From positions 27,022 to 91,021 of the forward strand of contig JBJXGI010000053.1 in the NCBI GenBank assembly GCA_046153645.1: a DNA stretch of 64,000 nt, in the 5' to 3' direction. This document shows, in pieces, positions 19,127 to 64,000 of the stretch; position 1 is the first letter of the stretch; every line of letters starts with the position of its first letter. The notes below the pieces were generated by a model that did not search any database, had not been told where the DNA came from, and was given only the letters and a program-made list of their open reading frames with translations. The DNA comes from Elusimicrobiota bacterium. GTDB taxonomy: Bacteria > Elusimicrobiota > Elusimicrobia > F11. A program made the position numbers and the translations under genes.

Positions 19127-22100
19127 TTAAGCGCCAACAGCCACAACTCGCGCCAACCCAATAACAAACCCGAGATTTCGAACTGGAAACTCTGACATGG
19201 CTGACAGCAATTCTTCTAGAGAAAGGTATTTGATGTGGTACAGAATGGAGGACTGAGTGGGTCCTGATGCCATCAGTTGCAACAACAGATCTCTTGATAT
19301 CACAAAATCCGGCAACAGTTGATTGCTTGCTTGTAAGGCGGTCATCGTTTGCTCAAAGACGATTTTGTTTATTTTTCCTTTTGAGAAAAGGCCCTTTTGT
19401 GGCATCAGTTTAATCTGCCACTGAAGGTTTTTTCTCAGGAGTTTCTCAAATTCTTTTTGATCATTTTCATCTATGACGAATTCGAAATTCATGGAACGAT
19501 TTAGATACTGCTTTAACTTTTTACTTCTTAAATCTTTAGCCCGAAGCACCATTTGAACCGCCTTTCCTTTCAAATGTCGCTTGTTTATGGTGTTTTCGTC
19601 TGGTGATCTTGCCACCTTTTCTGCCAACTCCAAGGCCTCTTCTGGTTCCAATTTACGCTCTTTATCTTTTAAGGTGTTTTCTAATTCCCGCACCAATAAT
19701 TCCAATTTTTCCGGGTCAGATTGGCTTATCGCTTGGCGCGCCAAAGGATTATCCAAGCCCATTTTGACAACTTGTCCCGTGAGGCTATTTAAAATGTCGC
19801 CGGCCCGCTTAGATTGAATTAAATCCGCTTGCTCTGAAATTCCCCACTTCTTAGCCACATCCGTCAAAACCGCCTCTACAACCAGTACGACCACATTGGC
19901 AAACAGAAAATAGAAGGAAACAAAGAGAACAACATAATCGACGAGAGAATGAGAAAAGAAAATAAGTGCGGGGATATAAACGAGAAGTGAAATAATAACC
20001 ATGAAAATATTTACGTAGATGCCGTACATGGCAGGCGGCCCGCGTGTTTCCCACGGCATTTTTCCGGTGAACATACCTCGAATTATTTTCAAGGTACCAT
20101 AATCGAGTCGTTTTCCTTCAGTCGGCCCACCAATCAAGTGCCCGCCTTCATGAGAGGTGATTCCACCGAAAAAAACTGTTCGGACAAGCCAATTTAACCA
20201 CATGAGATTATTTCTTTTCGCCCAGTTGGAATTAAAAATATTGGCGAAGAGGGAAGGGGTTTCTGATGTTAAAGTTGCGGGTGATAAAAGCGTCTGATTC
20301 TGTCTTCGGAATATTTCCAGATAAAGGGAGATTCTTTCAAGAATCAATGCTAAGTCAGAGTTAATTCGATCGTAACCGATTCGTTGCGCAATAATTTTGA
20401 TGAGGTCAAAACTTGTTACCACCTGCCCTCGATGCGCGGAGAGAAACGCCTCGCGTACCAATTCGCGAATGAACAATCGACGAAGAAATGGCGGAAGGTT
20501 AAAACGATTTTGGAGATAAACTTCCTCTACCACATCAAATGGCACATTAATATTTTTAATATCAAACGCTGTCGATGGGAACTCCAAACGAAATACTGTT
20601 TTCCCATTCTGAGAGAGAAGATCAAAATGGGCACCCAACCATTCCGATATCATTTCGATCTGATTTAGTGCAACGCCATTTTCCCCAGAAAGATTAAAAT
20701 ATTTTTTATCTTCACCTCTAATGGTTGTAAACCGCCAAGCAGTCAATATTGAAAAAATGTCAGCTGCAGATAAATCGGTCTTATGACCTAGTTGAGTAAG
20801 AATGCGAATGGATTTCCAAATTTTTGGCTCTTCTCTATTATAGTGAACAACTTCATCCGTATCACCCGTACCTTCTTGCAGCCGAAGGCGTAACGATCTT
20901 ATGATGACAGGAATCTGTTTTCGAATTTTTTCAGGATCGATGACACCGGGATTTGAAATTTCTAATGCCAAGGTTCCCAATTTATAATTTTTGAAAATTC
21001 TAATTTTGATCTCGCTGGTGGACCACTTAGGATTTGATCGCGCCCATGCATCGTGAGCATTTTTTAGAATTTCGCGGACGCTATGCATAAGTAAATATAT
21101 GGCCCAAGGATCGTGAGCCGTCACATGGGCTTTTTGGTTTATGAAATCTCCGAGCTTTTTATCACCATATTCAGCACTTAAAATATAATCTTTATCTTCA
21201 GAAGATCCTTCCCACACCAGAACCATTTCGTCTTTGGAGTCGTTTTGTGAATTGCCAAACGTCAGTGGCCGCTGTCCTATTTTCCACGCTCTCTTATTAA
21301 AATCACGGTGCGCCCTAACGCCACTCCACCAAGAAATTGCCGCTGCTTTTTTGATCTCTTTCCATCCCACTGTCAGCCAGTCTCTTTCCTCATCATCTTT
21401 GGGGTCGTGTTTTTCGACAAACCCCTCTTTCGCATGTTCCCCCGCTTCCCAAATTGGCGCGAAACGGATGGAAATGAATTTTTTTCTTAATGTCCACACA
21501 GCCAATGGAATGGTGAAGGCAAATGAATAAAAAACAGAACTATGATAAGTTGCGATAAAAAGAAATGTAGCATTAAAAATAAAATGAATTACTCCAAAGA
21601 AGATATAACCAGAAGTGTAGGTAGACTGAAGTGTAGCTGGAGATTTTATTATTTCCCCCTGATATTTTCCTTTTAGAGCGGTTTCATTTTTATCTCCATA
21701 TTGCTGCTCAATCAATAGTTGATTTAAATTTGGGAATAAATTGCGAACAGCCAACACAACGGGATTCCTGGTCTGTTGATATAAAGGTAATGTTACAGGT
21801 GTAATTTTCTCCAGTCTTCTCCCTGGAAATAAATTATTTTTATCTATAGGAAGGTGAGAAGCATTAAAATCAAAGAATCCATGAAGAACATACCCAGTCC
21901 AATTAATTTTAAATTGAGAAATTTTATTTGGCTGGCCCTGAGTTAAAGTAATTGAATTGGCTTGGGATGAACAATTACCAAGACCCTGAAGAACGAATCC
22001 GAAAAATTGAGCCGGAGTTAAATGTTCAGCTAAAACAATGCTTTCGGCATCCCAAATAAAAGGAAGTTCTTCACCGTTTATTTTAATGGTCCCATAATTA

Positions 22101-25100
22101 GCTCTGTAAAGCTGCATATGGACAATTCCGCGTTCGGCAAGGCGTTTATACAACAAACCATTATCGTTATTAATTTTCTCAAGAACGCGGTGCAACTCAG
22201 AAGTTTTTCGAAGATTTTCTCGCTCAGGCGCATTTGCAGCCAGATATTCCTTTGTAAATGGTTGATATTTTGAAAATTGATTGTTTATGTTCTCTATTGA
22301 ACTTGTAATCAAATCTCTAGGCGGCAATCCCAATACAACCATTCCTGCCGATCTATCTTGTGGCGTAGTGTCACCAGGCAATTCATAAAGGCACAAAGGA
22401 GGAGGCGTAAGAAACCCCTTTTTTAAAAGTGCTTGCCCTCCTAAAAATTCCGCAACAGCGTCTTCGAAATTCAACCCATATAAAGGATTAAAGTGATATT
22501 CCTCTGTGTAATAAATCCCACTGGGAGTGAAGTTCTCATCTCCAGGCTGAAAATGAGCTGGGACTAGACCCTCTCGTCTTAACCTTTCGGCAGGATCAAA
22601 AATGATAGCTGCGTTTTCTAAAGTACCGCCTTTCACTTTGATCGTCTTGAGAGGGAACCCATTAATCATGACAACGTCTGGAAGATCAATTTCTAAACTA
22701 CGTTCAAACTTATTGCTGTCGCCTTTGTGGGAATTGCGCCGGTCATAATCAACTCCAAGTTTTAATTTTGAAAATGGAGTTTTCACAATTTTTTCTATTT
22801 TGTCTTTCAGCCAAGGGTAAATTGCAATCAATTGTGCATAAACATCCGTTGTTTCATGCAAAATAAACTCGCGACTTTTGTCATTTTGTGGCAATGGTGG
22901 CTGTTCCGCGGTGGGAACATTAGTTATATCTACCGACACTAAATCGACTACGCCGTTCAAAACAGCGCTAATTTGTGGAATGATGGAAAAGTCAATCGCA
23001 TTCAGCAATTCCTCTGCTGCTTCGTTTCCTCTCAAAAGTGTGGATTGCATGCGCCTTTTTAATTCATCTCTGGGTTCTTTATTCCTAATAGCTTCAAGCC
23101 ATGCCCCTGCAATTTCATTAAGTCGTGGCAAGGAAGACTCACCAACACCCACATGTTTTATGGCCATCATCAACTGATTCAAAGCATCGAGAGCGTTAGG
23201 GTTTATGGAATCGGGTGCCAAGGGTTTATAAGGTTCTTTTTTCTTTCGACTAAACAAATCCCAAATGGCTAAATACGCCCCCTCTTTCAAGGCCGATTTT
23301 GAACCGGATGTGGCTGCACTTAATAAAAACATACCTACGTTGTAAGACATGTGAACCAAAATAGCAGAGACCAAACTGTTTGATTCGACATAGGTCAGAA
23401 CAATTAAAGTTGTGCCTCCAGTTTGAAGGCCCAGACGAGCGATGAAGGCAGTAACAAAATTTATATTTTTTTCGACAGCATCTTTTTTCGCCAAACTAAA
23501 ACTTCGCGGAATGTGGAATGCAAAAAACGTAAAACCCATAAGAATGGGACTTAAACCCCATATCCCTATTAAAAGCTCACGAAAAATCAACTCTTCCAGA
23601 AAAGGTAAAAAAATAAAAATGCTACCCACAGAAAAAATAACCACCCTTCGTTCATAAACAACTTTCACAAATTCACCAGTCCGATCAAACCAGGCTGACA
23701 AAACCCCCCGCGGAAATTTAATGGCCACTTTTCCGGCAAACCCAGAAAATTTTTTAACAAGTTCATAAAGCGCGAAAATACTGGCTTGCGAGGAAGGGAT
23801 GGGCGCTTCCGCCAAAAACAGTTTTTCTCCTTCAAACAATTGGTCGAGCGGAGTTTTTTCTTGCGCGAACACAGTGAGATAGGACGACCCATTTTCTGAA
23901 TTGACCTTCGTGATTTTAGGAGTAAAAGAAATAACCGTGTAACCTGCTTCGCTTAAACGTTGGTCGATGCCGGCCGAATGGAAACCACCCGTAACCAAAA
24001 CTGCGTTTTGGTAATTTCCAAAACCCAAATCACAATGATCAATTGATTTTTTTAGTTTTGGAGATTTGTTTGTTATTTGATATTTGGTATTTGAGTTTTC
24101 AATGATCTTTAGAAAATTACTTGCCATTTTTTCATCTCGAATTTCCGCTTGCTTATAAAAATTCTCAAAAGACTCTAAGGCAAACCCCTCCCCGCCTTCC
24201 CTCCCCACCGAAAAACGTGGGGAGGAATTTATATATTCTCCCCATTCTTCTTTTGTTAGTGAAAAGTCCACTAATTTTTTAGTTAAAGATAATGCGTGTG
24301 ATTCTTTAATCAATTGTTTTTCAACGTCTGTGTTAGCGAGTGAGGAATAAATTGATTCCTCCATTTTTTCAATACTTTTGAATAAATCATCTGCGTTAAT
24401 TTGGTCGCTTAAAAGCACATACTGAAGATACGAATTCATCGCAGGATAGCGGGACAACGCAATTTCTTTTTTATCGCAGAGATTTTTCAAACGAGCGTAA
24501 AAATCGGCATGAGAAATATTTCCCAAACGATAAGCCACACTGGTCGCAATCAGAGATTGAGACTCAAAAGTGCCTAGCTTAGCCAAGAGCTGTGAGAGAA
24601 GTTGACCTCGCTCCCTTTCAACGGCAGCGAAATTAAGGCGGGATTCCAAATGAATCGCTTTCAAGAATATTTGAATCTGAAAATGCTCATTAAAACCCTT
24701 ATCCGTGTCGTCGCCCCGGCGGAGGCCGGGGTCCAGGTCGTTAACCGGCTTTTTAGAAAAAAGTTTAAAGCTGGAAAGAAACTCCACATATTTCCCCAAA
24801 GACAAAGTATCGCCACGGTACAATTCGACCTGGCAATCAAAATCGTAAAGAGCTGCATTAAAAATTGTTTTCTTCTTTTGAGCAAGTTCGGTTCTTAGCT
24901 CATTTAACTGCTGCTTATTCTTTTCAATATGAGAGGCCGATTGCCGGTAAGCTTCTACATTTGCCTTATAATGAGCGGAATCATCAACCCCGATAAATCG
25001 AGGAAGGGTTTGCCCCGAACGCAGTTGAAGAGTGAAACCCGTATAAATCGGCCCAGAGACTTTATTTTCCCGAAGCAAATAGTTGGCCACTTTTCTAGTT

Positions 25101-25642
25101 GCCTCTGGTGGAAACACCCTGAAAGGGTTTAAATCGATGGGGTTAAACGCGCCTTCCAACGCAATGAGATCAACCTGATTACCATCAATAAGTCCTTGAA
25201 TGGTTTTGCCGATATTTTTTTGGGCTTCGGCGTTTCGATGGACATCTTGGATGTGAATGACGATTCGTCCATTTTTTCCCTCACCCTGACCCTCTCCCCG
25301 ACGGGGAGAGGGAAGAGTGATTTCTTGAATTGTTCCGTATTGGGTTGATAAGTTTTGAAACAGAGAAGAGAGTTGGGGTGCAATATCCTTTGGAACCGAT
25401 TCTTCAAATTGGCGTGGCAAAGACGCTTGAACATGAGGAAGTTGCTGCAAGATCGAGTGAGAATTTTCCAGAGCAACATTTGAAGGCAATTGCGCTAATT
25501 GGATTGACTTTTTGTTGTCAACAGAACGTCGACGCTCTGCCCAAACAGACTTCTTTGGGTTATGGGCAAATGCACAATTTGTGGCGAAATAAATAATGGC
25601 CAACGCAGTGGAAATCGATCGAATAAAAACTCGCTTTTTCAT
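19127..25642 (-). CDS. 2171-aa secreted/membrane multidomain protein (conserved N-domain, CPBP/CAAX module, kinase-like, GHKL ATPase, HExxH module)
   Basis: Signal peptide to AFA; IQDVH..EGA..GVDD..RDEKMA..GGFH; EELIFR..FAFH..HMSYN; IKVKG..HMQLYRAN..WDAE; EILKNAHDA..SNPG..GENGVAL..TVFRLEFP; HEGGH..RGPPA. Confidence 0.85.
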   Translation of the reverse strand: MKKRVFIRSISTALAIIYFATNCAFAHNPKKSVWAERRRSVDNKKSIQLAQLPSNVALENSHSILQQLPHVQASLPRQFEESVPKDIAPQLSSLFQNLSTQYGTIQEITLPSPRRGEGQGEGKNGRIVIHIQDVHRNAEAQKNIGKTIQGLIDGNQVDLIALEGAFNPIDLNPFRVFPPEATRKVANYLLRENKVSGPIYTGFTLQLRSGQTLPRFIGVDDSAHYKANVEAYRQSASHIEKNKQQLNELRTELAQKKKTIFNAALYDFDCQVELYRGDTLSLGKYVEFLSSFKLFSKKPVNDLDPGLRRGDDTDKGFNEHFQIQIFLKAIHLESRLNFAAVERERGQLLSQLLAKLGTFESQSLIATSVAYRLGNISHADFYARLKNLCDKKEIALSRYPAMNSYLQYVLLSDQINADDLFKSIEKMEESIYSSLANTDVEKQLIKESHALSLTKKLVDFSLTKEEWGEYINSSPRFSVGREGGEGFALESFENFYKQAEIRDEKMASNFLKIIENSNTKYQITNKSPKLKKSIDHCDLGFGNYQNAVLVTGGFHSAGIDQRLSEAGYTVISFTPKITKVNSENGSSYLTVFAQEKTPLDQLFEGEKLFLAEAPIPSSQASIFALYELVKKFSGFAGKVAIKFPRGVLSAWFDRTGEFVKVVYERRVVIFSVGSIFIFLPFLEELIFRELLIGIWGLSPILMGFTFFAFHIPRSFSLAKKDAVEKNINFVTAFIARLGLQTGGTTLIVLTYVESNSLVSAILVHMSYNVGMFLLSAATSGSKSALKEGAYLAIWDLFSRKKKEPYKPLAPDSINPNALDALNQLMMAIKHVGVGESSLPRLNEIAGAWLEAIRNKEPRDELKRRMQSTLLRGNEAAEELLNAIDFSIIPQISAVLNGVVDLVSVDITNVPTAEQPPLPQNDKSREFILHETTDVYAQLIAIYPWLKDKIEKIVKTPFSKLKLGVDYDRRNSHKGDSNKFERSLEIDLPDVVMINGFPLKTIKVKGGTLENAAIIFDPAERLRREGLVPAHFQPGDENFTPSGIYYTEEYHFNPLYGLNFEDAVAEFLGGQALLKKGFLTPPPLCLYELPGDTTPQDRSAGMVVLGLPPRDLITSSIENINNQFSKYQPFTKEYLAANAPERENLRKTSELHRVLEKINNDNGLLYKRLAERGIVHMQLYRANYGTIKINGEELPFIWDAESIVLAEHLTPAQFFGFVLQGLGNCSSQANSITLTQGQPNKISQFKINWTGYVLHGFFDFNASHLPIDKNNLFPGRRLEKITPVTLPLYQQTRNPVVLAVRNLFPNLNQLLIEQQYGDKNETALKGKYQGEIIKSPATLQSTYTSGYIFFGVIHFIFNATFLFIATYHSSVFYSFAFTIPLAVWTLRKKFISIRFAPIWEAGEHAKEGFVEKHDPKDDEERDWLTVGWKEIKKAAAISWWSGVRAHRDFNKRAWKIGQRPLTFGNSQNDSKDEMVLVWEGSSEDKDYILSAEYGDKKLGDFINQKAHVTAHDPWAIYLLMHSVREILKNAHDAWARSNPKWSTSEIKIRIFKNYKLGTLALEISNPGVIDPEKIRKQIPVIIRSLRLRLQEGTGDTDEVVHYNREEPKIWKSIRILTQLGHKTDLSAADIFSILTAWRFTTIRGEDKKYFNLSGENGVALNQIEMISEWLGAHFDLLSQNGKTVFRLEFPSTAFDIKNINVPFDVVEEVYLQNRFNLPPFLRRLFIRELVREAFLSAHRGQVVTSFDLIKIIAQRIGYDRINSDLALILERISLYLEIFRRQNQTLLSPATLTSETPSLFANIFNSNWAKRNNLMWLNWLVRTVFFGGITSHEGGHLIGGPTEGKRLDYGTLKIIRGMFTGKMPWETRGPPAMYGIYVNIFMVIISLLVYIPALIFFSHSLVDYVVLFVSFYFLFANVVVLVVEAVLTDVAKKWGISEQADLIQSKRAGDILNSLTGQVVKMGLDNPLARQAISQSDPEKLELLVRELENTLKDKERKLEPEEALELAEKVARSPDENTINKRHLKGKAVQMVLRAKDLRSKKLKQYLNRSMNFEFVIDENDQKEFEKLLRKNLQWQIKLMPQKGLFSKGKINKIVFEQTMTALQASNQLLPDFVISRDLLLQLMASGPTQSSILYHIKYLSLEELLSAMSEFPVRNLGFVIGLARVVAVGA
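24014..24100. repeat. Degenerate heptamer-like arrays in inverted orientation, in frame
   Basis: ATTTCCAAAACCCAAATCACAAT ... ATTTGATATTTGGTATTTGAG; encodes NSNTKYQITNK...DLGFGNYQ. Confidence 0.5.
24185..24225. repeat. In-frame GC-rich palindromic element (boxC-like)
   Basis: CCCCTCCCCGCCTTC-CCTCCCCAC-8nt-GTGGGGAGG hairpin; encodes SSPRFSVGREGGEG. Confidence 0.7.
24709..24736. repeat. In-frame palindromic element resembling the GTCATTCCCGCGnAnGCGGGAATCCAG REP/RPE-type family
   Basis: CGTCG-CCCCGGC-GGAG-GCCGGGG-TCCAG; encodes LDPGLRRGD. Confidence 0.7.
25008..25030. repeat. Degenerate REP-like element, in frame
   Basis: GTTTGCCCCGAACGCAGTTGAAG resembles the TGnCCTGAGCGnAGTCGAAG repeat type; encodes LQLRSGQT. 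Confidence 0.4.
25278..25312. repeat. In-frame boxC-like palindromic element
   Basis: CCCTCACCCTGA-CCCTCTCCCC-GAC-GGGGAGAGGG; encodes PSPRRGEGQGEG. Confidence 0.8.
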
Positions 25643-25690
25643 ATTAAAGCAAGTATAAAAAACTGGCCTTAAGATTATCTTAATTTCAAA

Positions 25691-26830: not shown

Positions 26831-26859
26831 GAGCGATAGACTCCTTTTCTATCACTCAT
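26829..26859. promoter_or_regulatory. Inverted repeat over the Fic RBS/start, probable autoregulatory operator
   Basis: ATGAGCGATAGA-7nt-TCTATCACTCAT (11/12 complementary) enclosing the AAGGAG RBS. Confidence 0.55.
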
Positions 26860-26899
26860 ATTACATGATTTTTTGATTGATAGACTTTTCGAACAGAAA

Positions 26900-32286: not shown

Positions 32287-32295
32287 ACTGTTCCT

Positions 32296-33588: not shown

Positions 33589-34008
33589 TTAATTCTCCAC
33601 CTTCTTTTGCTCTGTTCCAATAGAAATACTTTGGGCACCTGCTTTTTTACATAGAGAAATAAGCTCCGTTAAATGAGCGTAAGCGGCATCTTTATCGACC
33701 CTTAAAATAACTAAAATTTCAGGATCTTTTTTCAACTCTTTTTGTAACTGCGGAATAAAATCATCAATTTGATCAATAATATTAGAGTTAATCGCAAGCC
33801 GGCCATCAGGGGCGTAAGTAACACTGATATTGGCATCTTTACTTTCTATCGTCGAAGCGCGCGGCAACTTTACGGGTAAATCAGCCACATCTAACATAGG
33901 AGAAGTCACCATTAAAATAATCAAAAGAACCAAACACAAGTCAATCACAGGAACAATATTGACGCCTGAAATAGTTGGTTCTTCCTGTAAAATATCTTTT
34001 AAGTTCAT
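33589..34008 (-). CDS. exbD: ExbD/TolR family protein
   Basis: NIVPVIDLCLVLLIILMV; LP.A; RVDK.A.Y. Confidence 0.88.
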   Translation of the reverse strand: MNLKDILQEEPTISGVNIVPVIDLCLVLLIILMVTSPMLDVADLPVKLPRASTIESKDANISVTYAPDGRLAINSNIIDQIDDFIPQLQKELKKDPEILVILRVDKDAAYAHLTELISLCKKAGAQSISIGTEQKKVEN

Positions 34009-56700: not shown

Positions 56701-59700
56701 AGGTATGTAAACGGGTTCATATCCCATCTCTTTAAGTATGTCATCTAAATTAGAATTACCAATAGGGGCATGCTCGGGTGAGGTTAAAATAAGAAGAGGA
56801 AATTGATCCAAATTTTCATTGTTAAGCGGAATCTCTTTTACTGGAGGAAGTACAAGCAAGTTATCGATCTCTCTCAAAGCGTCTCGTAAATCTTGAGGCT
56901 CTAATTGATCAAGAACAAAACTTGCTGCTATAACTGGGACTTGATGCGGACTGTCAAAAAAGCCATCAACAATTTTGGGAGTATTAATTTCGTCCAAAAC
57001 TTGTTTTGTCGGAGATCCCATACGACTGATGTCAGCACGCACACGCAAAGGATTGGGCGCCTGGCCATAAATATTAGGGTCTTTTTCCAAATCAATAATT
57101 TGGATTGAATGAGGATCACCATTCTCGTTTGTTTCCTTTAACGCGTGATAAACCCGCCATAAAACACTTAAATTGGCACCGATATCGAGAACGGTTTTAT
57201 TTGTTTTGATGTGATCAATAACCCACCGCGCAACCCAAAGATTCGCTTGAAAAGCAGGGGTTTTGGCTTCAATATCTATATTCACCGCCGTCGCTTTTCT
57301 ATTCGCCCAAGAAATAGCTTCCAAAATACTGCTATTTTGATAGGACAAAAGACGCTGATGAATGGTCTTTAAAAAAATGACATCTTGAAAATTAAATTCA
57401 TTTTTCTCTTCATCAATAGAACGAAGAACTCGCAGAACGCGCTGGACGTCCGGCCACGGGACAACTCGCAAACGGCGACTTCGTAATGAAGCTTCCAACC
57501 GATGAAGGTCCGTAACAATAACTTGAAATTCTCCCAAATCAATGCCATCAACTTTCTTTTTCCATTCTTGAACGACCTTTTGAAATTCGATGTCAATATT
57601 TTCTAGATCACTGAAGGTCAGTTCTGTTTCTTTACCAATAGCATAAACCTTTGATGCAATATCCAATCCCATCCAATGAATTATTTTTCCAGAAAAAACA
57701 AATCGCTCATAAGCGGATTTAAGCTCTTTTTCTTTATCGGATCGAAGTAATTGAACACGACTTTCTTCTTCTGGGAATAATTGAAGAACATCATCTGGCC
57801 CAACATAAAATATTTTTTTACTGGGAAGATGAGTGATCCGGTAAACCCATTTCGGAAAATTTCCAAAAGCGTCCGCACCCACAACAACTCCTATCTCATT
57901 AACTAGATTTGCAGTCTTAATAGTCGTGGGGCAATAAATGAGATCGGAAATATTCCAATCATTTGTTTGAGATTTCCAATCTATGGCGGTTGGATTTACA
58001 TCTTTCAGTAATTTTTGATCTCTAAAATCTGACTTAAATTCTTTCGCTACTTTTACCTTGGATTTACTAAGAGAAAACCACCCTTCTTTTCCTCTATTGC
58101 GCTGAATGCGAGCGATAATATTATAGAGACTGTGACCAGAACCGGCAGAAAACCAAATGGGGACAAGAAAAAGAACCACAACCAAAAAAATTTTAAAAAC
58201 AGGAGAGAAAAGAAGAAGCTCAATAAAAATTGAATAGGGCGGAGAAAGATTATGAAGCATTGTCGTCATCAAAGCCAGTACATCCATCACATGAACGGCC
58301 GAAACAATTCCCAATATAAGCCCCATAACAGCTCCACCATAAATGAGAGGAAGACCAATCCATTTTTGTTGCCAAGACCGTTTAGAATGATCCTCTAAAA
58401 AACCAGGAAGAAGTTGACTCACCACCTCAGTAACAAAAGGAGCAATAAAAAATTGAGTTAGTTTTCCTTGAGGATCAAAACCTAATTTTTCTGCAAATTT
58501 TTCAGTGGAATCTAAAGTGAGACTTTCAGGATTAACTGGGTTCAATCTATTTCTAAACCCCGGAAGGTTTTCTAATTCGGCTTCCACGCTATCGATTTCT
58601 TCTTGACTTCCGATTCCGCCATCGGTGAAAAGTCTTAAGCGAAACTCTAAATCTTCTAACCTTTTTATTGTTGTTTGATCGATGGTTTCGATACCAAACA
58701 ATCCTTTTTCTTTGTCTGGTAAACCATCCAGAAAATCTTGATCGTATTGTGATACTAAATCTACAATCTCTACTTTGTGTCTTTTAACTCCTATTCGGTG
58801 TATTCGGTCTATCGCTTGTAAGCGGTTTCTTATTCCGTTGTGACCGAACAGAATCGCCATATCTGCTGGCAATGTTAAACCTGCCGCCATAGAATCGTAG
58901 GTTCCTATAATTATTCTTGTATTCGCGTCTTCTCTAAATAGTCGGTAAGACTCAGCATTTTCATCTGCTTGCCCACCCATATAAATTCTGGCTCCAAACT
59001 CTTTATATCTCTTAGCTAGTATTTCTGCATCTTCACGGTGTTCTACAAAGATCACAACTTTGTTCGTTGATTTTTCTTTAAGTTTTTCTCTCAATATCGA
59101 ATCCAATAGTTTTGATTTCGGAGACTCGGCATCACTTACTTTTTTTAAGATTCTTTTATACTGGTCTCGTTTTTTTCCGGGATCTTCATCACTATCAAAC
59201 GATTCTTTTAATTCCTGCATTTGATCTCGCGATGCTTTAAAAGTGAATGCTTTAAATTCTTTGGCAGGTAACGTATTTAACTGGTCTTCTATTGGAATAT
59301 TCGGATCGGCTGTTTCAAAGAGCATGTCTTTGGTTAAGCGAATCATATTATCAATCAGTAACTCTTGAAGCATTTCTCTGGCACCAGCGTCGTTCAGGTC
59401 AATATTACTCACATCAATGCCCAATGTTTCTAGCATATGTTTGGCTTGCTCTAAATTTCCAAACGGAGTCCCGCTTAACAATAAAGTAATGAGATTCTGC
59501 GAGATGAGCTTCGCCCCTTGCACTTGTTGGGATTCATTGCTTGATGTGACACGATCACTTTCATCAACCGCAGCAAAGCCAAATTGGTCCTTTAAGTTTC
59601 GAATGATTTCTAGATTGTTTTTTAACAAATCGGCATCGACTTGATTTTTTTCACTGGCTTTATACCCTGCTAGATATCTTAATAACTCGATGTTCACTGT

Positions 59701-62700
59701 TGTACTGACGTTACGATCTTTCAGATCTTGAACTCTTTCTTCTTGTTTCCCTTCCAACTTAGAAAAAGGTTTATTTAAGAATTTATCGGATTCTCTGACC
59801 CAATTCTCTGTTAACGCATTGGGAGAAAACACCAGTGCTGGTTTACTAAGTATTAATGTTAACGCCAAAACAATGAGACTTTTTCCCAATCCTTGTTCTA
59901 GAGCCAGTAACACATTCTTCCCTTGATAGCGTGTTAAAATTTCATGCAGCACCCATTTCTGATAGAAATATAAAGTATAGGGGTCTCCTTCTTTTTCTTT
60001 AAAGATGGGGTTAATTTTCCTTACTTCTTCAAACTTATCTAAGATTCGTTGATAGATTTTCTTTAATGCAGCTTTCTTTTCTTTTTCAACAAGTCCTTTT
60101 AAATAATCAAAACCCGCTTGTTCATTCTTTGTAAAGTAACGCAGAAAGTTTTTCTCTAAGTTAAGGGAGAGAAGGTCTTGGTCGAGTTCTGAGTGGTCTT
60201 CAGCGTAATCGCTTAGGGCTTCATTAAGGGCACTGGTTTGTTGGATGTTTAACGTTTGGATGGGACCGATTTTGTTATTTTCGGTATCTAAAACTTGGAA
60301 TTGAAAAGTGTTTAATTGACCTATGAGGATTAAGGGGAGTTTAAGGGTCCATTCGCCTTTTTCTGACACAACCGCTTGTAAACGCAGAGGACCAAAAACA
60401 TTGATTTGGGCATTGGGCGGGGCCCGGCCTTTCAGAGTGACCAGTGTTTCTGATGTTTCAAATATTTCTTCTTTTTCAATGGTAGGAGAAACAGAATCGA
60501 TGTCTAAGGTGAGCGTATCGTCTAATTCATATCGAACATCGTCTCCCGCTCTTTTCCCACTCAAACCACGAATGGCACTTTGAACCAATGCATTGATTTG
60601 AGCAGGGTTTAAATGGGGGAATTTTCTCCTTACAATTTGAATAAAGAGTCGTGAGTTATTGGATTTAAGCAACCACAAGATATCTAGCAATTCGTGTTCT
60701 TCTAAAGCTTTTATGTCGGACCTTGTGGTGGGGCGAAGTCGCAAGTTCAGCCACTGGGCGATGATGGGGGCGTCTTCGGGATTGAAGGACCACACACCCT
60801 TAAAACCCAGTTGAAAAATAACACTAATATTTTTTTTCTTACCCCCTTTCATGGACACCTCTCCTATCACTTCCAAGGTTCCATTCGGTAGCAAGCGACG
60901 AGTAAAACCATCTTTCCCATCAAATTCGAGAAACTTCTTGATTTTTAAAACCAAATCATAAGTTACTCCAATAAAAACCAACTTATCATCTACTTTTAAA
61001 CCTTTTGCTGCCACTGTTACCGCTCGATCTTTCACCTCAGGATCTTGTAACAACAAAATATTATCCTTAGTAAGGTTTTTTGCAAAAAAATGATTAGTAA
61101 GAATCGCAACTTCTGTCGAATCTTTGGCATCATACGACCACACACCTTGGAGACCCAATTTGAATAAAACAGAAATATTCTTTTTTTGTCCTCCTAGAAG
61201 GGGAACCTTCGCCGTTACTTCCAAGGTTCCATCCGGTAACAAGCGACGGGTAAAACCATCTTTTCCTTTAAATTCGAGCATCTCCCTTATTATTAAAGCA
61301 ATATCCTGAGGATTTCCAATAAAAACCAACTTTTCATTGGCTTTCAGCCCTAACGATGTCACTTTCACCGTTCGAACTTTTTCCTCAGGCGATTGTGGCA
61401 ACAAAATATTTTGTTTCGTGAGTTTAACTCCCAAGAAATGATTGGTAAGAATCGCAACCTCTATCGAGTCGTTAGAATCAAACGACCAGATTCTTTCGGA
61501 ACTTAACTGAAATAGAACAGAAATGCGCTTCTTTTCTCCTCCTCGAAGAGGCACCTCTGCCGTTATCTCCAAGGTTCCATCTGGTAACAAACGACGGGAC
61601 AAACTATCTTTTCCTTTGAATTCAAGCATCTTGTTTATTTTTAAAGTATTCTCACGAACGCTCCCAATAAAAACCAACCCATCACCATCTCTAAGCCCTG
61701 ATTCCATGACCATCACGGCTTGATCTTTTGCCGTAACCTTTTGTAACAATAAAATATTCTCTTTTGTGAGATTACCTCCTAAAAAATGATTTGCAAGAAT
61801 GGCAACTCCTGTCGAGTCTTTGTCATCAAATGAACAGACTCCCTTCGCTCCTAATTGAAATAAAACAGAAATAATCTTCTTTTTTCCTTCTCGAAGAGGC
61901 ACCTCTGCCGTTACTTCTAAGGTTCCATCAGCAAACAAACGACGAGTAAACCTATCGTTTTCTTTAAATTCGAGCATCTGTTGTATTTGGCGGACATTTT
62001 TAGAACGATCCCCAATAAAAATTAATTCATTAGCTACTTTTAAGCCTAATTTTTTTACTGCTATTGTTCGACCCTCCGCCTCAGGCTTTTGTAACAATAA
62101 AATATTCTTTTTGTTAAGTTTGTCACCCAAAGCATAATTCGTTAATATCGTCACATTCTCAACATCTCTCTTATTAAAAGACCACACATTTTTTTCCCCA
62201 AGTTGAAAAACAACAGTCACTGTTATAGTCCGACCTCCGCTAATCGGTACCTCACCTGTCACTTCCATCGCCCCATTTGGTAAAAGTTTACGATTCAATT
62301 TATCTTTTGCCTCCGATTCAATCATTTTTGTTATTTTCGAAACATTGACACTGGGATCACCAATAAAAATTAACTCTCCATCCATTTGAAGTCCTGACTT
62401 TGAAATACGAATTTTATTTTTATTGGCTTTTTCAGCATTATCTTCTATTAGAGCTGCCAAAGGCAGCAAATGTCCCAGTTTCCCCAACCAACTCTCATTT
62501 GAAAACGCTCGCAAGAACAAAACAAGCGCGTTATGACTTGAATGAAGAATCGCCGAATCAAAATATGAATTTGAAGTCATAAAGCTGCCAAACACAAACG
62601 GACTCCCGAGGATTATCCCCACGAAGAAAAGTTTAAAGAACTTACTACTCAGAAAAGGTGTGTTGGGATGGAATAAAGAAAACACAACCGCACTCACGCC

Positions 62701-64000
62701 CCATACCAGATAGGATACCCACGGAGAGCCGGGGAATAACCATAGACTGAGCGGAATCATGAGCTGAAACACCATTTCCCAATTCACACCGAAGATTAAA
62801 TACAGCTTTTCTGTGATAGAGAGTTTGGGTTTAACTTCATCTTGTATGGCATCGGTCTTATTGAAAACGTTCACGTGAAATTGAATGAAACGTTTGCCAA
62901 CTTTCCAGAAAAAGTTATTTTCGTTTAGGATGCGCGCTGACAAGCTGCCGTATATTTTGACCGCGATGGCTTTACTATTTACAGTGGTAGGATTAACAAA
63001 TAACTTTTCTGCTTTAAATAATTTATCGAGCGGTGTTTTTTCTCGAGAAAAAACCGTGAGATACTCACTCCCTTTTTCGGTTTCCACTTTCGATATTTTT
63101 GGGGATACCACAATATAGGGGACGTTGTTTTCTCTTAAGAGCTTTGTCACGTGAGGAGTGTGGAAGCCGCCAACGACCAAAACCTTCGGTTTTGGAATTT
63201 TCAAATTCCAAATATCAAATTCCAAGCTATTTATTTTTTTGGCATTTGACTTTTGAATATTGTTTGAATTTTGTGATTTGTCATTTAGAATTTCAATTTT
63301 CGATAATAAATTGAACACCATCTTCTCACTGCGAATATCCGCTTCTCGGTAGAACTGTTCGAACGGGGCAAGTTCCAGTCCCCTCTCCCTTTTAGGGAGA
63401 GGGTTAGGGTGAGGGGTAAGGTGCGAGGAAGAGCTCAAAAGCCCCTCCTCACCCTGACCCTCTCCTCCCGAAAGGGAGGAGAGGGGAACCGTTGGAATTA
63501 ATGGATTGGAGTGTTTTTTGTATTCTTCCCACTCATTTGGTGTTAGAGAAAAATCAACGAGCTTTTCTGTTAACGTTAATTGGCGACTTAAGTTTATTAA
63601 CTCTTTTTCTTCGTTCGTTTTGGCTAGTCTTTCGACTATTTCTTCTTCTAAACTTCTGACGCTTTTCAGTAAGGGTTCAGCTTTTATTCCATCAGACAAG
63701 AGCACGTAACGAATGTAGTTATTGAAAGACGGGGTTTTATCTAAAGAAATTCCTTTTTCGTTACAAAGGTTTTTTAAACCTTGATAATAAGACCCAAAAC
63801 TTAAATTCCCCATTCGGTAGGCCACGCTTTCTTTCATGAGCTCTGATATTTCTTTTTCAGATAATCGTTCCGTGAGTTTTTCAATAACGATTCGGCGTTC
63901 GGTTTCGACTTGTTTGAAGTTAAGTGATTTTTCGAGGTGGTAGGCTTCTAAGAATGTTCCTACTTCCTGCTTTGACCCTCTCCCGTAAAACGGGAGAGGG
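50710..64000 (-). CDS. Giant (>4400 aa) multidomain protein, 5' end beyond window
   Basis: Frame stays open from 63837 to the window end (PLPFYGRG..FLEAYHLEKSLNF..), homologous to the 2171-aa protein. Contains 5x116-aa repeats, Ig-like domain, SF2 helicase, SAM methyltransferase-like domain, 7 HTH-like repeats, cupin-like domain, HExxH module and several TM modules. Confidence 0.88.
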   Translation of the reverse strand, partial: PLPFYGRGSKQEVGTFLEAYHLEKSLNFKQVETERRIVIEKLTERLSEKEISELMKESVAYRMGNLSFGSYYQGLKNLCNEKGISLDKTPSFNNYIRYVLLSDGIKAEPLLKSVRSLEEEIVERLAKTNEEKELINLSRQLTLTEKLVDFSLTPNEWEEYKKHSNPLIPTVPLSSLSGGEGQGEEGLLSSSSHLTPHPNPLPKRERGLELAPFEQFYREADIRSEKMVFNLLSKIEILNDKSQNSNNIQKSNAKKINSLEFDIWNLKIPKPKVLVVGGFHTPHVTKLLRENNVPYIVVSPKISKVETEKGSEYLTVFSREKTPLDKLFKAEKLFVNPTTVNSKAIAVKIYGSLSARILNENNFFWKVGKRFIQFHVNVFNKTDAIQDEVKPKLSITEKLYLIFGVNWEMVFQLMIPLSLWLFPGSPWVSYLVWGVSAVVFSLFHPNTPFLSSKFFKLFFVGIILGSPFVFGSFMTSNSYFDSAILHSSHNALVLFLRAFSNESWLGKLGHLLPLAALIEDNAEKANKNKIRISKSGLQMDGELIFIGDPSVNVSKITKMIESEAKDKLNRKLLPNGAMEVTGEVPISGGRTITVTVVFQLGEKNVWSFNKRDVENVTILTNYALGDKLNKKNILLLQKPEAEGRTIAVKKLGLKVANELIFIGDRSKNVRQIQQMLEFKENDRFTRRLFADGTLEVTAEVPLREGKKKIISVLFQLGAKGVCSFDDKDSTGVAILANHFLGGNLTKENILLLQKVTAKDQAVMVMESGLRDGDGLVFIGSVRENTLKINKMLEFKGKDSLSRRLLPDGTLEITAEVPLRGGEKKRISVLFQLSSERIWSFDSNDSIEVAILTNHFLGVKLTKQNILLPQSPEEKVRTVKVTSLGLKANEKLVFIGNPQDIALIIREMLEFKGKDGFTRRLLPDGTLEVTAKVPLLGGQKKNISVLFKLGLQGVWSYDAKDSTEVAILTNHFFAKNLTKDNILLLQDPEVKDRAVTVAAKGLKVDDKLVFIGVTYDLVLKIKKFLEFDGKDGFTRRLLPNGTLEVIGEVSMKGGKKKNISVIFQLGFKGVWSFNPEDAPIIAQWLNLRLRPTTRSDIKALEEHELLDILWLLKSNNSRLFIQIVRRKFPHLNPAQINALVQSAIRGLSGKRAGDDVRYELDDTLTLDIDSVSPTIEKEEIFETSETLVTLKGRAPPNAQINVFGPLRLQAVVSEKGEWTLKLPLILIGQLNTFQFQVLDTENNKIGPIQTLNIQQTSALNEALSDYAEDHSELDQDLLSLNLEKNFLRYFTKNEQAGFDYLKGLVEKEKKAALKKIYQRILDKFEEVRKINPIFKEKEGDPYTLYFYQKWVLHEILTRYQGKNVLLALEQGLGKSLIVLALTLILSKPALVFSPNALTENWVRESDKFLNKPFSKLEGKQEERVQDLKDRNVSTTVNIELLRYLAGYKASEKNQVDADLLKNNLEIIRNLKDQFGFAAVDESDRVTSSNESQQVQGAKLISQNLITLLLSGTPFGNLEQAKHMLETLGIDVSNIDLNDAGAREMLQELLIDNMIRLTKDMLFETADPNIPIEDQLNTLPAKEFKAFTFKASRDQMQELKESFDSDEDPGKKRDQYKRILKKVSDAESPKSKLLDSILREKLKEKSTNKVVIFVEHREDAEILAKRYKEFGARIYMGGQADENAESYRLFREDANTRIIIGTYDSMAAGLTLPADMAILFGHNGIRNRLQAIDRIHRIGVKRHKVEIVDLVSQYDQDFLDGLPDKEKGLFGIETIDQTTIKRLEDLEFRLRLFTDGGIGSQEEIDSVEAELENLPGFRNRLNPVNPESLTLDSTEKFAEKLGFDPQGKLTQFFIAPFVTEVVSQLLPGFLEDHSKRSWQQKWIGLPLIYGGAVMGLILGIVSAVHVMDVLALMTTMLHNLSPPYSIFIELLLFSPVFKIFLVVVLFLVPIWFSAGSGHSLYNIIARIQRNRGKEGWFSLSKSKVKVAKEFKSDFRDQKLLKDVNPTAIDWKSQTNDWNISDLIYCPTTIKTANLVNEIGVVVGADAFGNFPKWVYRITHLPSKKIFYVGPDDVLQLFPEEESRVQLLRSDKEKELKSAYERFVFSGKIIHWMGLDIASKVYAIGKETELTFSDLENIDIEFQKVVQEWKKKVDGIDLGEFQVIVTDLHRLEASLRSRRLRVVPWPDVQRVLRVLRSIDEEKNEFNFQDVIFLKTIHQRLLSYQNSSILEAISWANRKATAVNIDIEAKTPAFQANLWVARWVIDHIKTNKTVLDIGANLSVLWRVYHALKETNENGDPHSIQIIDLEKDPNIYGQAPNPLRVRADISRMGSPTKQVLDEINTPKIVDGFFDSPHQVPVIAASFVLDQLEPQDLRDALREIDNLLVLPPVKEIPLNNENLDQFPLLILTSPEHAPIGNSNLDDILKEMGYEPVYIPHLIKNELNSSAKDSLKSTLGSKAAKNVEEFTSKPYHAAVYAKVRVVDPVFVKIPLARYTFRQPQKRRSQKNRKTDEKEEAQLDPSKLESLFYIESLRPTDFNISETSIIPRTTIYSLRRYRMFELNIAILSHYYEFLNVEDKNQFDAIKKAWDDDNSAFLTTDQVNFVMDRPTQLAGVDGWDYEQVLGEFNYLRRAINEYRDSYKARRLSEIYTENKTADMTATERRVQKELEEQKYSLRQIFDWEEAWRSANNGKNIIEETRDWIGQRIIQIHRAVIKLRDEKKSVSPTTVGAEIRVVYATVINFAKSLNVDLSSWDIIVEGAARVDVDDRKSQILNAVDKIKLEKGEPNLGNVAQKLGLKRHSLSGWFTNAKVDPVSLGVIPQKFDVEARKKEIVEAVAELVKEEKKPTRAAVQERIGVTTSLATMAKSEGIDLASLGVERDPVSQPVDNQKRIELIKKAVEDIIKEGNTPNVRTVAFKIGLKGQKTLSDWAERHNVDLAALGVIVKLDKTTRIKQIKKAVREIKKANGIPNAVAVKKKAGFSDATGMREWAKRNDVDLASLGVIEETKEEKEKEIRDIVAKLISEGKSPNFTAAGIALGYGATSAASALQRWAQHNGINLTALGVVDYREEGHILDRTVSLEDSLLKIRTAVEDIKSQNKRPYFAAVAAQLGYSGRGGGAALHKWLQTNEINPAALGIVYFSDTDTDSDAGSEFSNTSNPSAPGSINDKFNRFVMRAVKFFGVGTSGQLAVVGFFEGAIRQMGLYVVLPSAVLGLFKFLYLNGHLATAPPWVMSLLGIIFVGSLFIYTYLFVRHSLRYFQKRHFEKGVLTPDGLFKIRDLQVSKAATKTAWLGYKGIPFSLLGFLLLAFSSHSFWSNMGGWALVVFGMFVGAWNHAKGNKSEHSEEELHKKATSRREFLGGTVRLAAASSINPFQILSLTDLFGNKIPEWGNYLKLGMNVQDAFLKALMRYGSTEEKEGDMAHMLASHWLASTWKQENFSSVREAFSQTLSREYERIRKLIDGNDPIWMAYYREKNNVLKRMPMPFHLEGMSDPYRSSIELSFLREQLNAALLKVIAQFIPGKQLAQAKKMAEFLRRNLPPEMRGKNWRMHLLNRGIGDGDGALEVSELIRDMNLGKDDLWLDDSTLHFNSVDEKLRYRLAMGEKRNKVQIEYANKQSARLKELHKELSKPVPDKVRLKELADGFVADDKAYEVAMKQLNSQAIADHGRKKDELETFTNGMGERAIESYTREEMKRAWQDYMGEPLQGLGPDKRDSDLEILYQQIVTSQDESIKNNRYSPIEINKNELKKLVKMLISEIHTLYAGKTLVKLHPQGFLQLVITGQTRWENSGGLRFHVWDPSLPRTPEVFDGSHKHSFQSNSFVLLGEVGDTIEYTVPVTDGLSGEQIFRKYRTPLRDRITPMDELVHVRSRLSRSAPAGSRLYYPIGDFHSQKIPSGIITATLFQKYGLDENNPAIAIGPQDVPESINEMNQRIVDQEVAWRSIFKAVKELEIFYELDVNDTGSEVVTNPINLRNASLTLAVIAPVSITGLIVGLLGEGETAGLIKTVSLIVLSFFGFLWLTVFSFIRIEKYLGGTGETGPPATELAGEPSTQLNGKLKLYGFDAVSSRGIDFLEFKPKTETTPAQFVVNPFLFRLLTHPRFIVRFGTHFFLNIFLVPIHELTHAYVSKRETVAYGVQAGALVGIVLSVIYAPLVVGLVVVLVLVEVAGLIPHPNPLPLPRERGEKGSEWLSQLGAGLVNNNISDVLGEIKPFGVGQTGQAQFDNEAALIAQLSQWVKDSDFEGSLVQGLTAKIKEENKKKFNQEEIEELVEMLMALIIAKGIQVGERRSETKVSNKHLLLLKGEKSEKVTRVAVMARLMEAGLHVSTDIVVDSTETEDEVKKALTLLRKYKLLEDQSEIIFDVRVENNKFKDATISKEELASFQGQYPLIFIHGFQLAVGLSRNNQIILFPPLDVLQVNSLVDFFRSVLVAA
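51461..51499. repeat. In-frame boxC-like palindromic element
   Basis: C-CCCTCTCCCGT-GGCA-ACGGGAGAGGG-TTAGGGTGAGGG; encodes PHPNPLPLPRERG. Confidence 0.8.
54592..55900 (-). repeat. Seven tandem ~55-60 aa HTH-like protein repeats
   Basis: Consensus R...I..AV..I...G..PN...VA..IG....L..WA....VDLA.LGV repeated 7 times. Confidence 0.75.
60740..62430 (-). repeat. Five tandem 348-bp (116-aa) repeats
   Basis: FIG codons (CCAATAAA on +) start at 60968, 61316, 61664, 62012 and 62360, an exact 348-bp period; DNA similarity is visible (CCAAGGTTCCAT, CGACG). Confidence 0.9.
63196..63295. repeat. Degenerate heptamer arrays in inverted orientation, in frame
   Basis: TCAAATT CCAAATA TCAAATT CCA ... TTTGGCA TTTGACT TTTGAAT ... 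TTGTGAT TTGTCAT TTAGAAT. Confidence 0.6.
63380..63486. repeat. Two inverted boxC-like palindromic elements, in frame
   Basis: CCCTCTCCC-TTTTA-GGGAGAGGG-TTAGGGTGAGGGG (63381-63416) and CCTCACCCTGA-CCCTCTCCTCCC-GAAA-GGGAGGAGAGGG (63447-63485). Confidence 0.85.
63976..64000. repeat. In-frame boxC-like palindromic element (truncated by window end)
   Basis: CCCTCTCCCGT-AAA-ACGGGAGAGGG; encodes PLPFYGRG. Confidence 0.8.

Follow-up and report, generated by a model that had tools for sequence, protein, structure and literature searches.

Giant proteins of Elusimicrobiota and Omnitrophota join a predicted TIKI-fold head, protease-like membrane linkers and housekeeping-type cargo behind a signal peptide

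We analyzed 64,000 nt (herein referred to as the window) of an Elusimicrobiota genome (GCA_046153645.1; 2.63 Mb, 99.7% complete), a stretch that sits at the right end of contig C29 (JBJXGI010000053.1) and encodes two giant proteins, P0001 (2,171 aa) and P0002 (>4,429 aa), together with the N-terminus of a third. All belong to a family defined by a constant N-terminal head, cargo domains that alternate with protease-like membrane modules (herein referred to as linkers) and a tail. The family, the fold modeled for its head, the conserved putative catalytic set, the order of modules, a promoter element, conformity to the signal-peptidase rule, a loss of cysteine, the orientation of membrane hairpins and an intact, redundant PGI cargo were all computed directly. 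We hypothesize, with a little less than even confidence, that the members are exported, self-processing polyproteins whose cargo acts in the cytosol of a host or prey cell.

A Dispersed, Co-regulated Family in Two Phyla

P0001 and P0002 share 35% identity over 511 columns that span the head and the first membrane module (BLAST E 1e-63), an alignment that contains all of the motifs quoted for a common N-terminal region in an earlier note made from the window's letters; outside it no BLAST segment is better than E 0.37, in agreement with the divergence into unrelated cargo described there, and a comparison with 246 (mostly Elusimicrobiota) members yields no homologue for the majority of cargo segments in the two proteins. 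A head-profile search of the genome recovered 48 open reading frames (ORFs; some cut by contig ends, and two being halves of one broken gene) that comprise 106,369 residues, or 12% of the DNA, the longest frame being 10,179 aa. What had been taken for a system of one 45-kb locus is instead a dispersed, co-regulated family of 48 ORFs with relatives in two phyla, and the window holds three members rather than two, the one that starts at 668 on the minus strand having been missed.

Searched against clusters formed at 50% identity, the head profile matches 9,608, of which 6,550 lie at E ≤ 1e-30. The distribution in Elusimicrobiota is patchy: 82 of 301 genomes encode a head, including both genomes of the organism's own family, all six of family f4 and 50 of the 79 of f15 (relatives of whose proteins are titled Endomicrobiaceae), and none of the 91, 26 and 29 genomes of f2, f3 and f8. 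The head is also found in 149 of 251 Omnitrophota genomes, with 530 relatives recognized by pattern (some titled as other taxa), up to 43 head matches per genome and frames of up to 16,184 aa; lengths of 14,309 and 16,184 aa are the longest among the matches listed, in a survey that scored six candidates per genome, with 735 further matches outside the list. No name of a cultured Endomicrobium occurs among the matches listed (the best 80 of 254, 120 of 132 and 120 of 442), which does not by itself show absence. Orthologous architectures recur in Endomicrobia, and annotated cargo of head-bearing proteins (P0207, P0335, P0249) includes an MFS transporter, a Clp-type AAA+ ATPase and a CPBP protease.

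Most family genes are preceded, 61–63 nt before the start, by an element of 41 bases with four boxes at an 11-bp period. Family genes account for 22 of the top 24 genome-wide matches (an in-sample figure), the remaining two being the genes of a 6,623-aa exported protein and a barrel-type protein; out of sample, 64 of 72 upstream regions of relatives score at least 13, versus none of 72 shuffles. In 24 of 44 members, versus 127 of 1,042 ORFs, a -10-like hexamer lies 5–8 nt upstream of the start, and Shine–Dalgarno-like words are scarce (3 of 44 versus 320 of 1,042). These sequence patterns point to leaderless transcripts controlled by one regulator. The four-box, 11-bp-period layout is OmpR/PhoB-like by analogy, and three OmpR-family regulators are encoded in the genome; a pho-regulon reading gained no support, no phosphate-uptake gene being recognized among 62 matches (several without an assigned ORF). 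The element of P0001 is an expanded, weaker variant (in-sample score 18.6, leave-one-out 9.0), and that of the third member is canonical (leave-one-out 32.2). Four genes outside the family carry the same element (C87:10613-30481, C79:12501-38693, C11:22419-23420 and C79:49686-51662), encoding two giant exported proteins and two barrel-type proteins, one of which matches PorV.

The Head Resembles the TIKI Superfamily

The head has no Pfam match, no NCBIfam match below E 0.016 and no PDB sequence match (with a single sequence or a profile), and the sole sequence-level match to TIKI is that of one head-only protein to Pfam ChaN (E 0.002). The earlier note had allowed that the N-terminal domain might map to a characterized family of fixed architecture; it maps to no curated family, and its architecture is variable. 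An AlphaFold2 model built from 127 sequences (pLDDT 85.5) returned nothing at E ≤ 0.001 in Foldseek. Exhaustive structural alignment (VIA) against 48,161 chains placed EreC, Bcr136, ChaN, Bcr135 and HopBA1 at ranks one to five (Z 8.7, 8.6, 8.5, 8.4 and 7.9), the best superposition (Z 8.7) aligning 165 residues at a root-mean-square deviation of 4.3. The seventh rank is also TIKI (Z 7.1), the TIKI matches below the first five being a TraB-type chain, PMT (6.6) and RRSP (5.6), and the first unrelated chain has Z 7.4. The Z scores are moderate and the agreement of the top matches is specific: as modeled, the head, which the earlier note had left without a known fold, is a hydrolase-like fold of the TIKI/EreA/ChaN/RRSP superfamily.

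Five head residues (D133, H135, E163, R502 and H555) are invariant in the 127 sequences and in 34 Omnitrophota-type sequences. They parallel the catalytic set given for RRSP (E3900/H3902/E3930/R4001/H4030; Bcr135, H85/E113) in the available text of PMC6254334, both in their order and in placing Glu 28 positions after His, an equivalence drawn from spacing and strand position rather than from residue-level superposition. With the superfamily (EreA/B/C, Bcr135/136, ChaN PF04187, TraB/PrgY PF01963, HopBA1, PMT C2, RRSP) the head shares a parallel beta-sheet core and a series made up of acid-x-His, a Glu 28 positions on, an Arg and a distal His; it differs in a helical insertion of ~270 residues, in Asp replacing the first Glu and in leading polyproteins. 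Stand-alone head genes (509–613 aa) occur in both Elusimicrobiota and Omnitrophota. A predicted complex of head and tail was uninformative (score 0.01).

Membrane Linkers and Tail

Three recurring and mutually unrelated linker types occupy the same slot: CPBP-like, M50-like and HExxH-x(5-9)-E. Since iterative jackhmmer/HMM searching returned only 116 modules in 83 of the 246 proteins and missed visible ones, motifs were counted in predicted membrane clusters, where E..FxxxH..HxxxN occurs in 112 of 507 (11 when shuffled) and HExxH in 26 of 507 (1.7 when shuffled). Some CPBP and M50 copies reach Pfam cut-offs (PF02517, PF02163). Other than module 1 of P0001, the CPBP-like modules of the two giants have a single Glu, the His and HxxxN, often lack the Arg and have no Pfam match; the M50-like module of P0001 has neither the canonical NxxPxxxxDG nor a Pfam match, and a related module of a paralogue matches Pfam M50 at E 1e-6. 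One paralogue reads head-CPBP-sigma-CPBP-sigma-CPBP-sigma-CPBP-tail, with internal modules 77–93% identical and sigma cargoes 40% identical.

The two giants had been said to reconverge on an HExxH membrane module and a similar tail. HExxH does sit in a membrane module 341 (P0001) and 314 (P0002) residues from the C-terminus, but the modules are of different types and share no similarity. The tails are, judging from profiles, probably distant homologues (profile–profile comparison 84%, E 8e-6, 105 columns, the P0001 profile being built with 42 members and one sequence being common to both profiles). The tail model (AlphaFold2, pLDDT 82.9) is Rossmannoid; it returned nothing in Foldseek at E ≤ 0.001, and we assign no family because the best VIA match (Z 6.5) is generic. 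The last residue is Ala in 59 of 73 complete members versus 105 of 974 long ORFs. Elsewhere the genome contains split members and orphan tails (C23:17662-20207, C80:20564-28466, C16:6151-6573 and C90:11244-11960), which suggests birth-and-death turnover or assembly errors.

Twin-arginine-like motifs occur within P0073, P0085, P0111 and P0133, right after membrane modules or the head and in some cases with a full hydrophobic and cleavage region. Internal twin-arginine signals were nevertheless set aside: 12 motifs compare with 2–6 in shuffled sequence but, once a hydrophobic region is required, 2 compare with 0–2 in controls; the genome has its own TatC.

Cytoplasmic-Type Cargo behind a Signal Peptide

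Of the two giants only P0001 shows a signal peptide, as the earlier note had read, and 141 of 177 members satisfy the signal-peptidase -3/-1 sequence rule. The cargo that follows across the family includes sigma-70 regions, SNF2, AAA+, SecA-like and helix-turn-helix (HTH) domains, ADK, PPDK and GAPDH, alongside some extracellular types (beta-propellers, M23, LysM). The paradox that was noticed in the window, cargo that needs ATP, S-adenosylmethionine or DNA despite an export signal, is real, and cysteine loss and membrane topology sharpen it. One Endomicrobiaceae member of 4,970 aa has ADK, PGM and PGI between the head and the first predicted helix, which lies at 2310. We built 59 post-head stretches from Endomicrobia and scanned 35 with Pfam, in a choice that partly favored few early helices and included orthologues; before the matched domain, the 15 with a Pfam match have no predicted helix in 12 cases, two helices in 2 and one marginal helix in 1. 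The first modules resemble internal ones, and 27 of 39 have no extra helix after the head. Head-only genes of Omnitrophota adjoin genes for headless signal-peptide proteins without a membrane helix, whose cargo is PPDK, FBPase, aldolase/PFK/GAPDH, PGK or GPI and several of which end in AA.

Cysteine makes up 0.114% of post-head residues; among the other ORFs of the genome its share is 0.838% for those of cytoplasmic type and 0.401% for those that bear a signal. Over 9,676 columns aligned with matched homologues there are 17.3 Cys versus 44.7, lower in 17 of 27 genes and higher in 3. One of the 27 is a family fragment, a few encode exported proteins, and the majority of the pairs cross lineages. 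The cysteines that are retained include those of the ADK Zn-lid, the deaminase Zn site and the GAPDH active site. Exclusion of cysteine from exported proteins is documented (available text of PMC2823432). The combination of signal peptides, missing membrane crossings and cysteine loss therefore argues that the cargo leaves the producer's cytoplasm.

The hairpins carry the opposite signal. The outer flanks hold more K+R than the short loop does in 302 of 374 hairpins and less in 41 (in control polytopic proteins, 88 versus 86 of 191), an orientation that places the large domains on a cytosolic side, with flanks that are acid-depleted rather than K+R-enriched over background. The cargo would therefore face a cytosol, and placing the final membrane in a different cell would reconcile the evidence for export with that for a cytosolic environment.

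The cargo PGI keeps its catalytic motifs, is ~50% identical to the stand-alone PGI of the same genome and is 91% identical between two genomes in which the stand-alone enzymes are 87% identical. By sequence, the cargo looks like working housekeeping enzymes and regulators rather than toxins. In two genomes, G043 (L137, L234) and G059 (L143, L233), a stand-alone pgi lies directly upstream of a head-bearing giant, that of G043 carrying a second PGI.

Candidate Partner Genes

An operon conserved at four Omnitrophota loci (L321, L326, L327 and L332) encodes a PKD/Ig protein, a GspC-like PDZ protein, a TPR protein with a probable outer-membrane barrel, a stand-alone head and headless, Ala-ended cargo; its PDZ domain could read the Ala-ended tail. 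Exported proteins of 160–190 aa are encoded directly upstream of head genes at five Endomicrobia loci (L159, L183, L190, L195 and L208), and a 449-aa repeat protein with a 132-aa protein upstream at 15–16 Endomicrobia loci; no such conserved upstream partner gene was found in this genome. Among 669 neighbors, only AAA_14/DUF4143-type genes recur downstream in this lineage, in a search for immunity-type neighbors that highly variable immunity genes would escape. PorV-like genes, the part of the type IX machinery covered by the search, are present in three of five genomes tested and absent from the Omnitrophota one.

Weighing the Explanations

If the hypothesis of delivery holds, one transcription factor would turn on dozens of leaderless genes together through the four direct repeats, and a cleavable signal peptide would direct each product to Sec. 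The chain would cross an oxidizing compartment unfolded, a passage to which we propose to attribute the loss of nonfunctional cysteines, and a putative further machine, perhaps recognizing the W-x-E-R-R leader or the tail with its final Ala, would take the product on. At the final site the head and all large domains would lie in the cytosol of a cell other than the producer, and the two- and four-helix modules would have entered the membrane of that cell from its inner side. The TIKI head (which also exists as a stand-alone gene beside headless cargo genes) and the CPBP-, M50- and HExxH-type linkers would cut the chain or license export, and the freed sigma factors, ATPases, kinases and sugar-phosphate enzymes would redirect expression and carbon flow in the host or prey. 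Export in vivo, protease activity, cleavage, delivery and target are all what we infer here. Precedents appear in the available text of two papers: Chlamydia secretes the housekeeping enzyme PGM (PMC9251005), and RNA of an Omnitrophota predator was detected in dead prey cells (PMC13153191).

Several observations weigh against this hypothesis. The search for an export or delivery machine was negative: it found a single SecY, and hence no accessory Sec, in each of five genomes tested; counts of secretins and PDZ proteins fail to separate head-bearing from head-less genomes among the five, ordinary secretins occurring in a head-less genome too; and the GspC-PDZ/barrel operon of Omnitrophota has no homologue in this genome. 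We know of no host or prey for this lineage, and the smallest Endomicrobiaceae genomes have the fewest candidates. Most CPBP-like modules have a single Glu rather than EE (a preceding E in 16 of 152), and only some pass the Pfam cut-off. No strong common cleavage site emerged: P[LMF][SAT] follows 26 of 152 modules (shuffled mean 10.4, maximum 22), and a candidate linker motif, R[SA]ExR, was rejected as not enriched (10 in the 246 members versus 8–19 shuffled). The topology calls, made by a purpose-written script based on a hydrophobicity scale rather than by DeepTMHMM, and the partly favorable choice of post-head stretches count on the same side. In about a dozen of the 59 stretches one helix is predicted shortly behind the head, at a place where close relatives have two, and an additional hydrophobic segment is present in 12 of 39 first modules; either would allow an ordinary topology with the head outside and the cargo inside. 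The family's helices fall only a little short of ordinary membrane helices in hydrophobicity (median -1.24 versus -1.61), so that SecYEG should insert them into the producer's own membrane.

A topology of that sort lies at the center of one alternative, which we consider doubtful: a sensor or scaffold in the producer's membrane, with a periplasmic head, an odd number of helices crossed (some missed by the predictor) and cargo held in the cytoplasm until linker proteases free it, as in regulated intramembrane proteolysis within one chain. It needs no new machine, it accounts for the positive-inside bias, the single helix in some members and the sigma domains tethered between near-identical CPBP modules (77–93% identity against 40% for the cargo), and the genome's Tat could serve the internal twin-arginine motifs; yet it does not accommodate members and headless partners without any helix from signal peptide to enzyme, it leaves a sevenfold loss of cysteine unexplained, and the cargo duplicates stand-alone enzymes. 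Unlikely, though less so, is that the proteins are exported and retained, the head and cargo forming a multi-enzyme coat, whether periplasmic, at the surface of the producer or in vesicles, that processes sugars and the debris of lysed cells, a reading given for Omnitrophota giants in the available text of West-Roberts et al. (2023; 10.1101/2023.11.21.568195). A coat agrees just as well with the signal peptides, the loss of cysteine and the missing membrane crossings, the extracellular-type cargo suits it, and two other giant exported proteins and barrel-type genes share the promoter element. However, the sigma-70, SNF2, AAA+, SecA-like, HTH, ADK, PPDK and GAPDH cargo needs DNA, RNA polymerase, ATP or NAD, and the charge bias of the hairpins is the opposite of what cargo outside the cell predicts. 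That only the head (and tail) matter, the middle being a tolerated, fast-evolving dump of duplicated, decaying domains and palindromic repeats, we regard as improbable: broken members and orphan tails exist, cargo segments of P0001 and P0002 mostly lack homologues among the members, and family genes contain an excess of in-frame REP-like palindromes (14 in 319 kb versus 7 in 2.01 Mb of other ORFs, with 18 elsewhere), but open frames of 1,000–16,000 codons are maintained, catalytic motifs are intact, cargo PGI is more conserved than its stand-alone counterpart, and orthologous architectures recur in Endomicrobia.

The hypothesis of delivery can be extended, more tentatively still, to the proposal that Elusimicrobiota and Omnitrophota share an undescribed system of inter-cell delivery in which Sec-exported, co-regulated polyproteins, cut or licensed in cis or in trans by a TIKI protease, would equip the cytosol and membrane of a different cell with working housekeeping enzymes, sigma factors and membrane proteins. 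This would be a phage-like takeover kit that occupies 12% of the genome and would underlie the giant-protein phenomenon in both phyla.

Features of the Window and Neighboring Genes

Table 1. Coordinates of family members and of their features in the window.
Feature	Position	Strand	Remarks
P0001, family member 1	19127..25642	-	complete ORF, 2171 aa
P0001 upstream element	25652..25727	-	TGTAACA/TTTAC and TTAA-type boxes, ~11-bp period; TATACT -10 hexamer 9 nt before ATG; no Shine–Dalgarno
P0001 Sec-type signal peptide	25565..25642	-	residues 1-26, predicted cut after AFA; read from sequence
P0001 post-signal leader motif W-x-E-R-R	25526..25564	-	W..R[RKQ] in 177/246 members
P0001 TIKI-fold head (predicted)	23804..25333	-	large helical insertion; putative catalytic D133, H135, E163, R502, H555
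P0001 CPBP/Rce1-like module 1	23318..23644	-	complete motifs EExxFR (683), FxxH (707-710), HxxxN (764); Pfam PF02517 E 1.4e-6, above cut-off
P0001 cargo, kinase-fold, SelO/MchC-like	21668..22870	-	Atlas language-model features 0.95-0.97
P0001 degenerate CPBP-like module 2	21263..21604	-	two predicted helices; E..FxxxH..HxxxN by eye; no Pfam match
P0001 cargo, GHKL ATPase domain	20543..21100	-	N-box ExxKNAxDA; HATPase_c E 4.6e-4, below curated cut-off; CheA-like in appearance
P0001 M50/site-2-protease-like membrane module	19808..20206	-	HEGGH 1831, GPP 1868, distal Asp about 1940
P0001 tail domain	19130..19729	-	two helices, Rossmannoid alpha/beta domain, terminal helix ending in Ala
P0002, family member 2	50710..64000	-	>4429 aa, 5' end beyond contig
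P0002 C-terminal part of TIKI head (predicted)	62965..63999	-	Arg and GGFH His present; D-H-E half not assembled
P0002 CPBP-like module 1	62509..62817	-	single Glu, FxxFH, HxxHN
P0002 cargo, five ~116-aa repeats	60700..62421	-	four computed, fifth read by eye
P0002 cargo, SNF2-type SF2 ATPase	58780..59976	-	PF00176 (SNF2) E 2e-8, PF00271 (Helicase_C) E 8e-8
P0002 CPBP-like module 2	58105..58437	-	predicted helices and motifs
P0002 cargo, probable class I methyltransferase	56740..57222	-	motif by eye; best Pfam only E 0.012
P0002 cargo, HTH-domain array	54670..55902	-	KfrA_N E 2e-7
P0002 CPBP-like module 3	53995..54492	-	predicted helices and motifs
P0002 twin-arginine-like SRREFL after module 3	53875-53952	-	weak reading
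P0002 third-type membrane module	51499..52080	-	GPP ... HExxH-x(5-9)-E; eight copies alternate with cargo in 10,179-aa paralogue
P0002 tail domain	50713..51297	-	ends LVAA; profile comparison with P0001 tail
Third family member	3..728	-	N-terminus at 668, element 688-728; 2119 aa, runs on left of window

The cargo calls made earlier for the two giants fared unevenly (table 1): Pfam matches confirm the SF2 helicase, whose Walker A/B, III and VI motifs are intact by eye, and support the HTH array; the GHKL call is weak, with its match below cut-off, and the kinase-like and methyltransferase calls come from language-model features and from a motif. The kinase-fold cargo has no Pfam or PDB sequence match, its matched SelO/MchC cluster is annotated SelO on 35% of members, and another family member carries two homologous copies. 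The ~116-aa repeats of P0002 have no usable Atlas match and no Pfam match below E 0.05.

The earlier note had also raised the possibility that the long ORFs are assembly chimeras. Contigs of three other runs (one study) tile positions 17500-27000, mostly at ≥99% identity and with no joints, and as far as this sequence check, made for P0001, can tell, that gene is not chimeric; no single piece covers the whole of it, and foreign contigs accumulate at 25273-25314. The start of P0002 is not assembled because the contig stops at base 64000, a break that falls within its head at a repeat-like stretch. In a comparison that takes in contigs C81, C83 and C24, two contigs end in head N-termini (276–278 aa) and two begin near the matching point, so one of C81 and C83 may hold the missing start.

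Unrelated genes fill the 25 kb between P0001 and P0002 (Fic, CdaA, FtsH, TilS-type PP-loop, TonB/ExbBD, TPR protein, PfkB, DsbA-like, ClpB). AAA_14+DUF4143 genes lie directly downstream of both giants (17849-19075 and 49547-50713), and AAA_14-type genes adjoin four family members in the genome. A Fic/DUF4172 gene (25691-26830) lies upstream of P0001, its 3' end overlapping the promoter element. The operon at 30617-38120 encodes a TPR protein (1,007 aa), ExbB, two ExbD, a TonB-C protein (430 aa) and two unknown proteins, one with a weak MotB/OmpA-like match (E 5e-4), and continues into TilS, FtsH and CdaA. REP-like palindromes stand in frame in both giants at 24206, 25297, 51480, 63396 and 63465 (also 24028, 24076 and 63219).

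Comparison with Known Systems

MARTX and polymorphic toxins (CDI, Rhs, MafB) have constant ends, a variable string of effectors and a built-in protease, and RRSP, a MARTX effector, has the fold predicted for the head. Of the reading made in the earlier note, a family with a constant N-terminal domain, swappable cytoplasmic-type cargo and an export signal is supported; the cargo does not look toxin-like, and no conserved immunity-type neighbor was found. The family further differs from MARTX in its Sec signal peptide in place of type I export, its multi-helix protease-like linkers, its housekeeping-type cargo and its dozens of dispersed, co-regulated paralogues, and from polymorphic toxins, in which a C-terminal variable toxin adjoins an immunity gene, in that the variable part is central and the tail conserved. 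As had been noticed by eye, RTX, Rhs and hemagglutinin motifs are absent: Pfam scans of P0001, P0002 and 76 post-head segments returned no match to these, to MARTX repeats or to CPD/C80. The linkers share motifs and helix pattern with CPBP/Rce1 (PF02517) and M50/site-2 (PF02163) proteases, from which they differ in being repeated within one chain as cargo separators and in their many degenerate copies. Type IX cargo ends in an Ig-like domain, unlike the Rossmannoid tail. Chlamydial enzymes of glycogen metabolism resemble the family in that sugar-phosphate housekeeping enzymes have gained an export signal; as described in the available text (PMC9251005), they are single enzymes with a type III signal bound for the vacuole lumen and have no polyprotein, head or tail.

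The closest relatives in print are the Omnitrophota giants, termed "Archaeovorins" (West-Roberts et al. 2023, 10.1101/2023.11.21.568195) and "multi-enzyme metabolic clusters" (Nielsen and Lui 2026, 10.64898/2026.06.07.730766). According to the available text, these have signal peptides and membrane helices, carry glycolytic enzymes, methyltransferases, NUDIX, HATPase, HEAT and divergent SecA-DEAD cargo as the family does, and have been suggested to be cleaved; both papers remark on the odd extracellular prediction for glycolytic domains. Their N-terminus is mostly unannotated and C39/S8 peptidases are invoked, the words "Tiki" and "CAAX" occurring in neither main text and "M50" not in that of West-Roberts et al. 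We find the head at the front of Omnitrophota frames that reach 16,184 aa, two of which have SecA-like domains. The Archaeovorin type (at least 30,000 aa, with GT, MTase, GH, NUDIX, HEAT and SecA-DEAD domains) exceeds in size the 2,171 and >4,429 aa of the window proteins, although cargo types overlap; family members of 1–10 kaa, in dozens of copies and with a defined head, linkers, tail and promoter, are unlike the giants as described. The literature searched, which lay outside subscription journals, Kizina et al. 2022 and the preprint supplements, holds no description of the head or chassis, and none is named in the available text of Seymour (2023; PMC10066038), PMC11573180, PMC12057145, PMC11257099 or PMC8939145. 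The whole chassis belongs to none of the systems compared; its parts are known folds, and giant multi-enzyme proteins have already been described as a phenomenon.

Significance

For the Omnitrophota and Elusimicrobiota giants, published work lists domains and has found no common chassis. Named putative catalytic residues, expressible stand-alone heads, defined linkers, a tail and a promoter element make the function of these giants testable. Even if delivery fails, a 9,600-cluster uncurated hydrolase family and a large topology conflict demand explanation; if delivery is true, the family would represent a new route of cell-to-cell protein transfer in two widespread uncultured phyla.

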